Assembly: GCF_000026545.1 (NCBI RefSeq)
Contig: NC_011601.1
From: Escherichia coli O127:H6 str. E2348/69
Lineage (GTDB): Bacteria > Pseudomonadota > Gammaproteobacteria > Enterobacterales > Enterobacteriaceae
Length of the DNA: 64,000 nucleotides
Reading direction: 5' to 3' (one strand)
The notes beneath the pieces are model-generated. The model saw nothing but the letters and a program-made list of their open reading frames with translations, had not been told where the DNA came from and did not search any database. Both the position numbers and the translations under genes were made by a program. Positions 58,533-61,354 of this stretch are shown in pieces. The number at the start of each line of letters is the position of its first letter. The stretch's first letter is position 1.

Positions 58533-58769
58533 CTAGCGCTTACCTTCCGCCAGCAGCGGCGGGATGCTCGGCACCATCGGCGCGTCATCAATATCTTTCT
58601 GCGTCATGCGGAACGCTTCGGGATAATGTTCGCGGCTGGTGCGGCGCAGCGGTTCGGTATCGCGCCAGGTATAGAGGCAATGCTGGCACTGGTAGACCGT
58701 CCAGACATCTTTTACCGGCGATTTCGCCATCACTTCAATCTGTTCATCAGCACAACGTGGACAAATCAT
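58533..58769 (-). CDS. Small Cys-rich subunit of phenolic acid decarboxylase (YclD/EcdD-like)
   Basis: 78 aa with CPRC...CQHC zinc-ribbon pattern, immediately downstream of the UbiD-like gene. Confidence 0.7.
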   Translation of the reverse strand: MICPRCADEQIEVMAKSPVKDVWTVYQCQHCLYTWRDTEPLRRTSREHYPEAFRMTQKDIDDAPMVPSIPPLLAEGKR

Positions 58770-58779
58770 CTTGTTCTCC

Positions 58780-60207
58780 TTATTTACGTGCGGCCAGCAT
58801 AGCGGTCAGTTTTTCAGCCCAGGCTTTGGTTTCCGGTAAATCCACCACCGGCTGGCTGTAGTGACCACGGTTGTCCGGAGCGACAGGCGTGGTGGCGTCG
58901 ATAATCAGCTTGTCGGTGATACCGGCCGGGCTTGAGCCGGGGTCGAGTTCCAGCACGGACATATTCGGCAACTGCACCAAATCCCCTGCCGGGTTCACTT
59001 TCGAAGAGAGCGCCCACATCACCTGCGGCAGGTTGAACGGATCAACGTCTTCATCGACCATAATCACCATCTTCACGTAGCCCAGACCGTGCGGCGTGGT
59101 CATCGCACGCAGGCCCACCGCGCGGGCAAAGCCGCCGTAGCGTTTTTTGGTGGAGATAATCGCCAGCAGGCCGTGGGTGTACATGGCGTTTACCGCCTGC
59201 ACTTCCGGGAACTCGGCTTTCAATTGCTGATACAGCGGCACACAGGTGGCTGGCCCCATCAGGTAGTCGATTTCTGTCCACGGCATGCCGAGGTACAGCG
59301 ATTCGAAAATCGGCCTGGTGCGGTAAGAGACTTTATCGATACGCACCACGGTCATGTTACGCCCGCCGGAGTAGTGCCCGGTAAACTCACCGAACGGCCC
59401 TTCGATTTCGCGTTTACGGCTTTCGATGACCCCTTCGAGGATCACTTCCGAGCCCCACGGCACATCAAAACCGGTCAGCGGGGCGGTGGCGATCGGGTAC
59501 GGGCTTTCGCGCAGCGCGCCTGCCATTTCATACTCAGACTGATCGTATTTCAGCGGCGTGGCCCCCATCAGGGTGATGATCGGATCGTTACCGAGCGTGA
59601 TTGCAATCGGCAGATCTTCACCGCGCTCTTCCGCTTTATGCAGATGCAGGGCGATATCGTGCATCGGCACCGGTTGCAGACCGAGCTTACGCTTACCCTT
59701 CACTTCCATACGGTAGATGCCGACGTTCTGCTTGCCGAAGTTATCCGGATCAAGCGGATCGCGGGAAACCACGCACGCTTTGTCGAGATAGAAACCGCCA
59801 TCACCGTCGTTTAAACGAAACAGTGGCAGAATATCGAACAGGTTGATCTCGTCGCCATCGACGGTGTTCTGCGCCCAGGCTGGATTGGCGCGGCGCTCCG
59901 GGGCAATGGGGAAGTTATCCCAGCGGCGGATAAACTCATCAATCTGTTTTTTAACCGGGGTGTTTGGCGGCAGGCCGAGGGAAATCGCGTGGTTCTGCCA
60001 GGAACCGATGGTGTTCATTGCCACGCGGGCATCGATAAAGCCGCGAATATTATCAAACCAAAGCGCGGGCGCGCCGTCGCCGATACGCCCGGTGGCGTTG
60101 GCTGCGGCTGCCAGATCCGGTTCCGCGTTCACCTCTTCGCTGATTTTCAGTAACTGGCCGTGGTCATCAAGCGCCTGTAAAAAGCTGCGTAAATCATCAA
60201 ATGCCAT
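58780..60207 (-). CDS. UbiD-family (de)carboxylase, aromatic acid decarboxylase subunit C-like
   Basis: 475 aa UbiD-family protein; not present between ygbN and rpoS in K-12 by recall. Confidence 0.8.
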   Translation of the reverse strand: MAFDDLRSFLQALDDHGQLLKISEEVNAEPDLAAAANATGRIGDGAPALWFDNIRGFIDARVAMNTIGSWQNHAISLGLPPNTPVKKQIDEFIRRWDNFPIAPERRANPAWAQNTVDGDEINLFDILPLFRLNDGDGGFYLDKACVVSRDPLDPDNFGKQNVGIYRMEVKGKRKLGLQPVPMHDIALHLHKAEERGEDLPIAITLGNDPIITLMGATPLKYDQSEYEMAGALRESPYPIATAPLTGFDVPWGSEVILEGVIESRKREIEGPFGEFTGHYSGGRNMTVVRIDKVSYRTRPIFESLYLGMPWTEIDYLMGPATCVPLYQQLKAEFPEVQAVNAMYTHGLLAIISTKKRYGGFARAVGLRAMTTPHGLGYVKMVIMVDEDVDPFNLPQVMWALSSKVNPAGDLVQLPNMSVLELDPGSSPAGITDKLIIDATTPVAPDNRGHYSQPVVDLPETKAWAEKLTAMLAARK

Positions 60208-60800
60208 TATTCATTCTCCTGAGAAAAATTCCGGGCCTGCGGCAATCCTTGCCAGCGCCTGGCGTGAGGATGTTCGAGGCCAAATTGATCCAGCACGCGG
60301 GCTACCACGTGGTGGACAATGTCATCTACCGTTTCGGGATGGTTATAAAAGGCAGGCATCGGCGGCACCATCGCCACGCCCATGCGTGAAAGTGCGAGCA
60401 TATTTTCGAGATGGATGGTGCTAAGCGGCGTTTCACGCGGCACCAGCACTAGTTTGCGGCCTTCTTTGAGCACGACGTCCGCCGCGCGCCCCACCAGGCC
60501 ATCGGCGTAACCGGCACGGATACCGGCGAGCGTTTTCATACTGCACGGAATAACGATCATGCCGTCGGTACGAAAGGAACCTGAGGAGATGGTCGCCGCC
60601 TGATCCGCCGGGTTATGGCTGAAGTCTGCGAGGGCAGCAACATCGTGGGCGCTGTAAGGCGTTTCCAGTTCAATGGTGGTTTTCGCCCACGTCGACATCA
60701 CCAGATGAGTCTCGACATTCGGCATCTCCCGCAGCGCTTGCAGTAATGCCACACCAAGAGGCGCACCGGTAGCCCCTGTCATCCCGACGATCAGTTTCAT
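60207..60800 (-). CDS. UbiX/Pad1-family flavin prenyltransferase
   Basis: 197 aa, MKLIVGMTGATGA N-terminus typical of UbiX. Confidence 0.82.
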   Translation of the reverse strand: MKLIVGMTGATGAPLGVALLQALREMPNVETHLVMSTWAKTTIELETPYSAHDVAALADFSHNPADQAATISSGSFRTDGMIVIPCSMKTLAGIRAGYADGLVGRAADVVLKEGRKLVLVPRETPLSTIHLENMLALSRMGVAMVPPMPAFYNHPETVDDIVHHVVARVLDQFGLEHPHARRWQGLPQARNFSQENE

Positions 60801-60913
60801 TGCTTACTCTCTAAATTGTTCGTATACGAACGTTATTATTAAAATACGCCTCTGTTTTCATCGCGGCAAGCGCTGAAAAGTAACAACATCTTCTTCGTCA
60901 CTGAAAAACCGCT

Positions 60914-61354
60914 ATGATAGCGGCAGATAGTTTGCCCGGAGTTTACATGGCGTTACGAAATAAAGCGTTCCATCAGTTACGACAGCTTTTTCAGCAGCAT
61001 ACAGCTCGCTGGCAGCACGAGTTACCTGACCTGACCAAACCACAGTACGCGGTGATGCGCGCCATTGCTGATAAGCCTGGTATCGAACAGGTGGCACTGA
61101 TAGAAGCAGCAGTCAGCACCAAAGCAACGCTGGCAGAAATGTTGGCAAGAATGGAAAATCGTGGCTTAGTCAGACGTGAACATGACGCCGCTGACAAGCG
61201 GCGACGCTTTGTCTGGCTGACTGCCGAAGGAGAAAAGGTACTTGCTGCGGCGATCCCCATTGGTGACAGCGTGGATGAGGAATTTTTGGGGCGTTTGAGT
61301 GCAGAAGAGCAGGAGCTGTTTATGCAGTTGGTGCGCAAGATGATGAACACATAG
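60914..61354 (+). CDS. MarR/SlyA-family transcriptional regulator (start uncertain)
   Basis: 146 aa winged-helix protein divergent from the decarboxylase genes. Confidence 0.75.
   Translation: MIAADSLPGVYMALRNKAFHQLRQLFQQHTARWQHELPDLTKPQYAVMRAIADKPGIEQVALIEAAVSTKATLAEMLARMENRGLVRREHDAADKRRRFVWLTAEGEKVLAAAIPIGDSVDEEFLGRLSAEEQELFMQLVRKMMNT

Follow-up and report, generated by a model that had tools for sequence, protein, structure and literature searches.

The hosA-vdcBCD decarboxylase module beside rpoS in Escherichia coli O127:H6 E2348/69 is a known locus and most likely ancestral

Introduction

The interval between mutS and rpoS (o454-nlpD) has reportedly been studied as a polymorphic region of Escherichia coli by LeClerc in 1999, Herbelin in 2000, and Culham and Wood in 2000. 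In the E. coli sequence analysed here, a stretch of 64,000 nucleotides that we call the window, this interval holds a block of four genes flanked by K-12-type ygbI-N genes and by rpoS. What is this block, what is it likely to do, and was it gained by pathogenic E. coli or inherited? We conclude that it is the known chromosomal hosA-vdcBCD 4-hydroxybenzoate decarboxylase module of E2348/69, the reference strain of enteropathogenic E. coli (EPEC). We put the probability of this reading at about 0.9, a figure that covers the whole explanation jointly, namely the identity of the module, its proposed mechanism and its proposed ancestral state. The module is real but ordinary; it is already known and well studied.

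Results and discussion

Gene content and edges of the module

Genome comparison shows the window to be 100% identical to records of E. coli O127:H6 E2348/69, including NZ_LT827011.1, the sequence from which the crystallised HosA protein (PDB 8AGA) was taken. The open reading frame (ORF) list places three co-directional minus-strand genes (vdcB, vdcC and vdcD) and a divergent MarR gene at 58533-61354, in exact agreement with the extent and placement originally predicted. These genes form a 2.9-kb module, hosA-vdcBCD, for which ecdBCD, kpdBCD, pad1-yclC-yclD and 'HAD operon' are in use as synonyms.

The operon begins with vdcB (ecdB/kpdB/pad1; minus strand, 60207-60800), which encodes a flavin prenyltransferase of the UbiX family. 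Its 197-residue product scores 311 bits on NCBIfam model NF041206 (cut-off 290) and 246 bits on TIGR00421 (cut-off 109), matches other UbiX family models, and aligns over all 197 residues with PDB 1SBZ, a Pad1/UbiX-type protein of O157:H7 (E = 4e-127). The second gene, vdcC (ecdC/kpdC/yclC-like; minus strand, 58780-60207), encodes a UbiD-family protein of 475 residues, the predicted prFMN-dependent catalytic subunit C. It scores 789 bits on NF041204 (cut-off 650), also matches the UbiD family model TIGR00148, and has its best PDB match in chain A of 7AE4, a phenolic acid decarboxylase (E = 3e-160). VdcC reaches 173 bits on the UbiD equivalog, below the cut-off of 788, and is therefore a paralogue and not UbiD itself. 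Its motifs GIYR (163-166), with R166, and EGPFGE, with E269 and E274, may, judged by motif resemblance, be the E/D-R-E triad described in PMC8988006. The third gene, vdcD (ecdD/kpdD/yclD-like; minus strand, 58533-58769), encodes the 78-residue small subunit D, which scores 121 bits on the equivalog NF041205 (cut-off 30) and aligns with ShdD of PDB 7AE4 (E = 3e-11). All four cysteines are kept (Cys3, Cys6, Cys28 and Cys31), and 'Zn-ribbon', the term first applied to this protein, appears to be a fair description of the motif. All ORFs of the module are full length against their profiles. Homology searches thus return UbiX- and UbiD-type proteins, and the original prediction of a UbiX-like, a UbiD-like and a small Zn-ribbon subunit is borne out by models above cut-off and by the PDB matches.

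Genes B, C and D are adjacent and run in the same direction. The TAA stop of vdcB overlaps the ATG of vdcC (TAATG), with an AGGAG motif 7 nt upstream; vdcD follows vdcC after a gap of 10 nt, and its ATG is also preceded by an AGGAG Shine-Dalgarno motif. The overlap and the Shine-Dalgarno motifs indicate translational coupling of vdcB, vdcC and vdcD.

Both edges of the module are marked by hairpins. On the left, between the convergent genes ygbN and vdcD, the sequence at 58503-58530 folds on both strands into a 12-bp stem (-17.1 and -18.9 kcal/mol; z = -3.3 and -4.0) and is likely a bidirectional terminator. On the right, rpoS is convergent with hosA, with 119 bp between them, and the rpoS terminator hairpin faces hosA at 61427-61460 on the minus strand (15 pairs followed by a T-run in the terminator scan; -25.6 kcal/mol and z = -3.6 on folding). 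The latter hairpin is common to all four locus types described below. Beyond the left edge, mutS (49121-51682) and the cluster ygbI / ltnD-otnK-otnC(ygbL)-otnI(ygbM)-ygbN (52495-58494) complete the interval. This cluster serves the use of L-threonate and D-erythronate, which are four-carbon acid sugars. Six of its six proteins exceed NCBIfam equivalog cut-offs, as YgbI, L-threonate dehydrogenase, 3-oxo-tetronate kinase, 3-oxo-tetronate 4-phosphate decarboxylase, 2-oxo-tetronate isomerase and a GntP transporter, and they are annotated by PGAP as well. A scan of 45000-64000 against Rfam at gathering thresholds gave no RNA family match.

HosA and its operator

The divergent gene, first described as encoding a MarR/SlyA-like regulator, is indeed hosA (plus strand, 60947-61354). 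Its product is a MarR/SlyA-family repressor whose residues 1-135 match residues 1-135 of PDB 8AGA, 'Transcriptional regulator HosA' (E = 6e-85). A longer ORF of 146 codons, starting at an in-frame ATG at 60914, was dropped in favour of the start at 60947 on account of the PGAP start, the 135-residue length of the crystallised protein and a GGAG motif 5 nt upstream.

The genes hosA and vdcB are divergent, and the 146 bp between them contain the HosA operator, a perfect 14-bp palindrome (GTTCGTATACGAAC; 60818-60831) located 17 bp ahead of the start codon of vdcB. We assign the operator by identity to a published site: a HosA-binding oligonucleotide contains the same palindrome with the same flanks (PMC6261655). 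It is the sole exact copy within the window, and in other genera 22 loci have an exact copy at the corresponding position. A sequence with two mismatches to the operator, GTTTGTCTACGAAC at 34124-34137, lies at the 3' end of a hycI-like ORF and adjoins a HigB/HigA-like pair; we judged it a chance match. A sigma-70 consensus scan of 58400-61600 found no promoter, and the -35/-10 pair that we read by hand (TTGCCG, 17 nt, TATTTT) is weak, with 8/12 matches to the consensus. Within the hosA leader, the minus strand also has a terminator-like hairpin (60908-60924).

Published work describes how HosA behaves. It represses both the HAD operon and its own gene, from a site downstream of the transcription start. 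HosA of strain UMN026 is dissociated from DNA by 4-hydroxybenzoate, with a KD of 4.7 uM (EMSA, ITC), and ligand-bound crystal structures of E2348/69 HosA have been published. The protein is already in use as a biosensor part for 4-hydroxybenzoate, a breakdown product of parabens.

Layouts of the mutS-rpoS region

Does carrying both gene sets set this genome apart? The original prediction treated ygbI-N and the decarboxylase genes as two alternative sets whose co-occurrence was special. Counts over 5,426 complete E. coli RefSeq genomes, among which clinical lineages are over-sampled, do not agree with this. The ygbI-N genes are present in 4,576 genomes and the module in 2,380 (44%), always on the chromosome and nearly always as a single copy (median of 1 place per genome, highest 2). 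Both sets, contiguous, occur in 1,576 genomes (29%), which is not a majority, and the remaining standard states are the K-12 junction (1,944; 36%), a B2-type replacement by MBL/flavodoxin genes (1,040; 19%) and the O157 junction (807; 15%). The two sets vary independently and are not alternatives, and the combined layout, second most common of the four states, is neither rare nor new.

The layout also has a published name. The placement of these genes in a polymorphic interval was correct, and the region is a published lineage marker, in which the combined layout is 'pattern IV' (EPEC type) of Ewers 2014, with E2348/69 as reference strain (PMC4209514). The order found here, ygbN (o454)-kpdD-kpdC-kpdB-slyA/hosA-rpoS-nlpD, is that of pattern IV. 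In-silico amplicons with the primers of PMC4209514 equal the E2348/69 sizes for fhlA-nlpD (15,192 bp) and for products of 359 and 2,881 bp, and the mutS-yclC product measures 7,366 bp against 7,365 bp in that study. Two points differ from the published patterns: the fhlA-mutS amplicon is 1,672 bp here and 1,208 bp in Table 1 of PMC4209514, and the window has an extra Mop/TOBE gene, which that study links to pattern III strains. The full E2348/69 layout, Mop/TOBE gene included, is also found in strains such as APEC O78:H4.

Origin of the module

Per-gene identities of the module and its flanks were determined against O111, an O157-type strain, HS, a B2 strain and APEC O78:H4, and against 12 other genera. 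Compared with other E. coli, the module is 96-99% identical, and the flanking genes diverge at least as much. Outside the species, the order nlpD-rpoS-hosA-vdcBCD-mutS recurs in Citrobacter, Enterobacter, the Klebsiella oxytoca group, Kluyvera, Leclercia, Atlantibacter, Kosakonia, Franconibacter, Mangrovibacter and others, and the inter-genus nucleotide identities of the module fall within the range of mutS and rpoS. Since the gene order recurs across the Enterobacteriaceae and the divergence of the module tracks that of its flanks, the module is most likely ancestral and repeatedly lost, rather than a pathogen-specific acquisition. In K-12-type genomes the 58503-58530 hairpin is intact and the module is missing right after it. 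What is absent corresponds precisely to the sequence from one terminator to the other, and in its place is a 9-bp filler that looks like a deletion scar.

Third-position GC content (GC3) is 0.64-0.70 in the vdc genes and 0.51-0.57 in their neighbours. Nucleotide identity between Escherichia and Pseudocitrobacter is 92-97% in vdcCD and 80-91% in the flanks, a patch that suggests there may have been some exchange between genera inside the module. We considered recent horizontal acquisition as the main explanation and rejected it: the module is no outlier within E. coli, and only the Pseudocitrobacter vdcCD patch stands out.

We consider it probable that these pieces form one history, in which the module is ancestral to the Enterobacteriaceae and was not gained by pathogenic E. 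coli. K-12 would then carry a clean deletion between two terminators, an MBL-hydrolase/flavodoxin pair would have taken the place of the module in most B2 strains, E2348/69 would represent a B2-related lineage that kept it, and the vdcCD patch would reflect recombination between Escherichia and Pseudocitrobacter in an otherwise vertically inherited locus. Three factors would then underlie the four E. coli layouts: loss, which gave the K-12 type, replacement, which gave the B2 type, and whether or not ygbI-N is there. The layout that holds both sets would be a common retained state. If true, this history corrects the view of a 2024 preprint that the module was 'horizontally acquired from Shigella'. 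For the most part it is the 'gene conservation and loss' view of Herbelin et al. (2000), as cited in other papers.

The principal alternative, which we regard as improbable, is horizontal acquisition of the module as a pathogen-associated islet. Its main task would then be to regulate virulence or motility by way of the SlyA-like HosA, and the decarboxylase genes would be passengers. The literature treats the 2.9 kb found in EPEC, EHEC and Shigella as an 'insertion' when compared with K-12, but the exact inter-terminator gap of K-12-type genomes and its scar-like filler argue for a deletion there. The 2024 preprint claims transfer from Shigella dysenteriae Sd197 on the strength of 97.6% identity, yet 97-98% is ordinary divergence between E. 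coli lineages at this locus, and the flanking core genes differ equally or more. The raised GC3 of the vdc genes also favours an acquired islet; against it, neither phylogenetic nesting in one other genus nor mobile-element remnants at the module borders have been seen so far. Presence in 44% of complete genomes, at a chromosomal and nearly always single location, speaks against a pathogen islet, as does the same gene order beside rpoS and mutS in many enterobacterial genera, most of which are not primarily pathogens. The HosA operator before vdcB is conserved across genera as well. HosA has been reported to influence flagellin and motility in E2348/69, and given this effect the HAD operon may not be HosA's only target. 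However, hosA is reported to have no effect on type III secretion, regulation of the LEE or attaching-effacing lesions.

Proposed function

For the ancestral decarboxylase module that we favour, we propose the following mode of action. A HosA dimer on the palindrome, between the vdcB promoter and start codon, would block transcription of vdcB-vdcC-vdcD and probably that of hosA itself. Binding of 4-hydroxybenzoate would release HosA from the DNA and permit expression of the three translationally coupled genes. VdcB, being of UbiX type, would make prenylated FMN, with which a complex of the UbiD-type VdcC and the zinc-ribbon VdcD would convert 4-hydroxybenzoate to phenol and vanillate to guaiacol in a reversible reaction. 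Gene identities, operator, operon structure, population frequencies and synteny were computed here; the ligand response, the operator position downstream of the transcription start and the substrate range come from papers on orthologues or purified protein.

EcdCD of O157:H7 accepts 4-hydroxybenzoate and vanillate (PMC6644310), and decarboxylation of one or both acids is reported for enzymes of O157:H7, Salmonella, Klebsiella and Bacillus (PMC6644310, Table 2). We infer that the module is active in E2348/69. The earlier suggestion of a part in phenolic acid detoxification gains support as far as the handling of such acids goes, through the substrates of O157:H7 EcdCD and the release of HosA by 4-hydroxybenzoate.

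It is very doubtful that the enzymes instead carboxylate in an anaerobic, high-CO2 gut, or that VdcB is mainly a back-up supply of prenylated FMN for the UbiD of ubiquinone biosynthesis: UbiD-family enzymes are reversible and have been proposed to run as carboxylases in some anaerobes, VdcB scores well on general UbiX flavin prenyltransferase models, and about 12 of 80 species loci lack vdcB yet have vdcC and vdcD, so that cofactor supply is interchangeable with housekeeping UbiX, but HosA responds to the acid 4-hydroxybenzoate and not to phenol, as fits a substrate-induced decarboxylase, the activities reported for the E. coli, Salmonella, Klebsiella and Bacillus enzymes are decarboxylations of 4-hydroxybenzoate and vanillate, and no downstream phenol or benzoate pathway genes adjoin the module.

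Relation to known systems

The module is the same system as HosA and the HAD operon of UMN026, O157:H7 and E2348/69 (EcdBCD, Pad1-YclC-YclD or KpdBCD). HosA is the crystallised E2348/69 protein, the operator is the published one, VdcB matches 1SBZ of O157:H7 over its full length, the position beside rpoS is shared, and nothing structural differs. At the level of DNA, the E2348/69 allele is 1.3-4% divergent from all other complete genomes; the three assemblies with at least 99% identity to it are all E2348/69.

More distant relatives share the B-C-D architecture, the UbiD-type catalytic subunit and the four-Cys small subunit. These include ShdCD/VdcCD of Sedimentibacter hydroxybenzoicus (PDB 7AE4, 7AE5, 7AE7), BsdBCD of Bacillus subtilis and VdcBCD of Streptomyces. 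They belong to other taxa and are related by homology rather than identity, whereas regulation by HosA and placement next to rpoS are enterobacterial. Both enzyme families and the prenylated-FMN chemistry are also common to UbiX and UbiD of ubiquinone biosynthesis. The UbiD of that pathway works without a D subunit, and its substrate is polyprenylated.

Beyond correct annotation, the significance of the locus is small, and its use in typing E. coli lineages is already published. What we add are an updated count of how often each of the four layouts occurs among 5,426 complete genomes, a cross-genus synteny argument for an ancestral rather than pathogen-specific module, and a reminder that rpoS is dead in the E2348/69 record.

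The rpoS frameshift

On the minus strand, next to the module, rpoS (61474-62467) is a pseudogene, annotated by PGAP as 'frameshifted'. Alignment with two intact rpoS genes reveals a single inserted G, which is visible in the sequence itself: the run at 62076-62078 (ORF position 390) has one G too many, which results in a premature TGA at 62063-62065. The same +G mutation has been published for the StrR variant of E2348/69 (PMC5491219). The original prediction did not mention this frameshift, which matters for anyone who takes the E2348/69 record as a wild-type reference.

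Gene content of the ygbN-rpoS interval

The interval between ygbN and rpoS (58533-61354) holds four intact ORFs, the same genes at the same coordinates as in the original prediction. Three are on the minus strand, namely vdcB (60800-60207; 197 aa), vdcC (60207-58780; 475 aa) and vdcD (58769-58533; 78 aa); the MarR-type gene hosA (60947-61354, with an in-frame ATG further upstream at 60914) is divergent from them on the plus strand. To the left lie mutS (49121-51682), pphB, and ygbI through ygbN (52495-58494). To the right, rpoS (61474-62467) is convergent, 119 bp from hosA, and nlpD lies beyond it. 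Strong hairpins identified by fold and terminator scans flank the module at 58503-58530 and 61427-61460. In RefSeq, the four genes are annotated as subunits D, C and B of a non-oxidative hydroxyarylic acid decarboxylase plus a regulator of the MarR family. A 5.6-kb ygbN-rpoS query matches NZ_LT827011.1 (E. coli O127:H6 EPEC E2348/69 'variety 2') with 100% identity, and the module occurs at 100% identity in three assemblies, E2348/69 in every case.

The predicted gene identities also hold. VdcB, VdcC and VdcD score above the NCBIfam cut-offs (NF041206, 311 bits, cut-off 290; NF041204, 789 bits, cut-off 650; NF041205, 121 bits, cut-off 30), and regulator residues 1-135 match 'Transcriptional regulator HosA' (PDB 8AGA and six more entries). 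Because the 2024 HosA structure preprint took its gene from NZ_LT827011.1, the HosA encoded here is the very protein that was crystallised. VdcB additionally matches general UbiX flavin prenyltransferase models and aligns with PDB 1SBZ along its full 197 residues. VdcC is a UbiD-family protein with R166 in a GIYR motif and E269 and E274 in EGPFGE; among solved structures it is closest to the phenolic acid decarboxylase of 7AE4 (E 3e-160). With 173 bits on the UbiD model (cut-off 788), it is a paralogue of the ubiquinone-pathway enzyme UbiD. VdcD, with cysteines at positions 3, 6, 28 and 31, aligns with the 7AE4 partner chain ShdD. The genes have a coupled-translation architecture, in which the vdcB TAA and vdcC ATG overlap (TAATG) with AGGAG upstream, and vdcD starts 10 nt after vdcC with its own AGGAG. 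Profiles identify the ygb cluster as the YgbI repressor, L-threonate dehydrogenase, 3-oxo-tetronate kinase, 3-oxo-tetronate 4-phosphate decarboxylase, 2-oxo-tetronate isomerase and a GntP transporter; 'acid-sugar genes' was a correct description of them. The feature is genuine, with intact genes and a good explanation, and it is already known.

Proposed HosA regulation and decarboxylase function

The 146-bp divergent hosA-vdcB intergenic region contains a perfect 14-bp palindrome, GTTCGTATACGAAC, at 60818-60831, with the start codon of vdcB 17 bp downstream; this is its single exact copy within the 64-kb window. The HosA-binding oligonucleotide of a 4-hydroxybenzoate biosensor contains the same sequence with identical flanks (PMC6261655 supplement), and 4-hydroxybenzoate dissociates HosA from operator DNA with a KD of 4.7 uM (PMC6261655). 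As summarised in the preprint, biochemistry in UMN026 indicates that HosA represses both the decarboxylase operon and hosA itself, that transcription starts upstream of the HosA site, and that operon expression rises several-fold with 4-hydroxybenzoate. For the enzyme of O157:H7 and its relatives in Salmonella, Klebsiella and Bacillus, the substrates listed in a review table are 4-hydroxybenzoate (best) and vanillate (PMC6644310). By analogy with these orthologues, HosA in E2348/69 would leave the DNA when the acid is present, VdcB would provide prenylated FMN, and VdcCD would remove CO2 from the acid; the window supplies the sequence parts of this chain. The phenolic-acid role originally proposed thus appears to be right and is already published, on the strength of orthologue substrates and the HosA response to 4-hydroxybenzoate.

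A consensus promoter scan around the module gave no match, which leaves promoter positions uncertain. Within the hosA leader, the minus strand has a hairpin at 60908-60924 with a 7-bp stem and a TTTTT tail; this hairpin is antisense to hosA, precedes the vdcB promoter region and could insulate vdcB against antisense read-through. Elsewhere, an operator-like sequence with two mismatches to the HosA site, GTTTGTCTACGAAC (34124-34137), lies at the 3' end of a hycI-like ORF, adjoining a HigB/HigA-like toxin-antitoxin pair (33243-34063). This resemblance is probably due to chance.

Layouts of the locus in E. coli

Layouts were counted in 5,426 complete E. coli genomes, and the counts mirror which genomes were sequenced to completion, not frequencies in nature. 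The module is present in 2,380 (44%) and ygbI-N in 4,576 (84%). Both sets are contiguous, as in the window (ygbN-module-rpoS), in 1,576 genomes (29%); ygbN is directly beside rpoS, the K-12 junction, in 1,944 (36%); pphB is directly beside vdcD, the O157 junction, in 807 (15%); and an MBL-hydrolase/flavodoxin pair replaces the module in 1,040 (19%). Together these layouts account for 5,367 genomes and equate to patterns I-IV of Ewers et al. (2014), the window layout being IV. Pattern IV is the EPEC group, with E2348/69 as its reference strain (Ewers et al., 2014, PMC4209514). In silico, the published primers yield 15,192 (fhlA-nlpD), 359, 2,881 and 7,366 bp on the window; the published E2348/69 amplicons are 15,192, 359, 2,881 and 7,365 bp (Ewers et al., 2014, PMC4209514). 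Given these counts and patterns, the module and ygbI-N are independent presence/absence characters, and the presence of both is a standard state with its own name. The original prediction was right that this polymorphic hotspot is a lineage marker, as already published, but its view of a notable combination of two alternative gene sets is unsupported.

A gene at 48025-48453, between fhlA and ygbA, encodes a 142-aa Mop/TOBE (molybdenum-pterin binding) protein; it occurs in 1,889 of the 5,426 genomes and is missing from the O111 and O157-type loci. When this gene is included, the predicted fhlA-mutS amplicon of the window measures 1,672 bp, whereas Table 1 of Ewers et al. gives 1,208 bp for E2348/69 and a 1,673-bp product is called exclusive to pattern III. 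Their 15,192-bp fhlA-nlpD value already includes this gene.

In K-12-type genomes, the ygbN terminator hairpin is intact and is followed by 9 bp, TGTGCACAG, before the sequence resumes at the rpoS terminator. The absent stretch is exactly ~58533-61425 of the window, matching the 2.9-kb difference of the literature (PMC5491219 among the sources). In B2-type genomes, divergence begins in the last 12 bp of ygbN and ends at ~61414; in O157-type genomes, pphB and vdcD are separated by a different spacer of 40 bp, which contains a hairpin of its own.

Origin of the module

Compared with O111, an O157-type strain and APEC O78:H4, E2348/69 has 96-99% identity in the module genes, 97-99% in the ygb genes, 98.6-99.4% in rpoS and nlpD, and only 92-96% in mutS and pphB; module divergence is no outlier among the E. 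coli compared. The preprint proposed horizontal acquisition from Shigella dysenteriae on the basis of 97.6% identity, but this value is ordinary within-species divergence at this locus.

Searching a single genome from each species returned 353 VdcC relatives, and gene order was viewed in the best 80. Among these, the order nlpD-rpoS-hosA-vdcB-vdcC-vdcD-(pphB)-mutS is also seen in Pseudocitrobacter, Citrobacter, Enterobacter, the Klebsiella oxytoca group, Kluyvera, Leclercia, Lelliottia, Atlantibacter, Kosakonia, Franconibacter, Mangrovibacter and an Escherichia cryptic lineage. In Salmonella arizonae, diarizonae and Phytobacter, also among the best 80, the module is inverted and keeps its position between mutS and rpoS; the inverted Salmonella module adjoins ygbI and, in diarizonae, ltnD and otnK as well. 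Nucleotide identity to other genera is 81-88% for vdcC, compared with 78-86% for mutS and 81-93% for rpoS, and 22 loci from other genera keep the exact HosA operator in the corresponding position. From the unexceptional identity, cross-genus synteny, mutS/rpoS-like divergence and conserved operator, we infer that the rpoS-adjacent module is the ancestral state of Enterobacteriaceae and that some E. coli lost it or had it replaced.

In two Pseudocitrobacter loci (L009/L010), vdcC and vdcD are 92-97% identical at the DNA level to E. coli (L004 9000-10600), with mutS and rpoS at 80-92% and hosA at 60-74%; P. vendiensis is collinear with the O157-type layout, pphB included. The high vdcC/vdcD identity points to local recombination between genera or to very strong constraint. 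In about 12 of the best 80 species loci (L042, L053, L055, L063, L066, L068, L074, L075, L077, L080, L084 and L085), hosA is directly beside vdcC and no vdcB was detected; these clusters presumably depend on housekeeping UbiX for cofactor.

Alleles of rpoS, mutS and the module

The window carries an rpoS pseudogene, in which a single additional G at 62076-62078 (ORF position 390) leads to a premature TGA at 62063-62065, cutting RpoS after ~134 residues. The identical mutation is published for a streptomycin-resistant E2348/69 variant (PMC5491219). It tells which laboratory lineage of E2348/69 was sequenced.

The mutS and pphB genes (49121-52444) are 4.4-8% divergent from O111, the O157-type strain and APEC O78:H4; genes on either side diverge by 1-3%. 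The GC content of pphB is low (42%). The history of mutS is known to be mosaic, and this divergence fits such a history.

The closest module allele outside E2348/69 (98.7%) is that of APEC O78:H4 E12049 (L086), common to many mostly avian and human isolates. We take E2348/69 to belong to phylogroup B2 and O78:H4 APEC to be near it. The E12049 locus shares the overall layout of the window, Mop/TOBE gene included, and the hosA-vdcB intergenic regions of the two are 100% identical.
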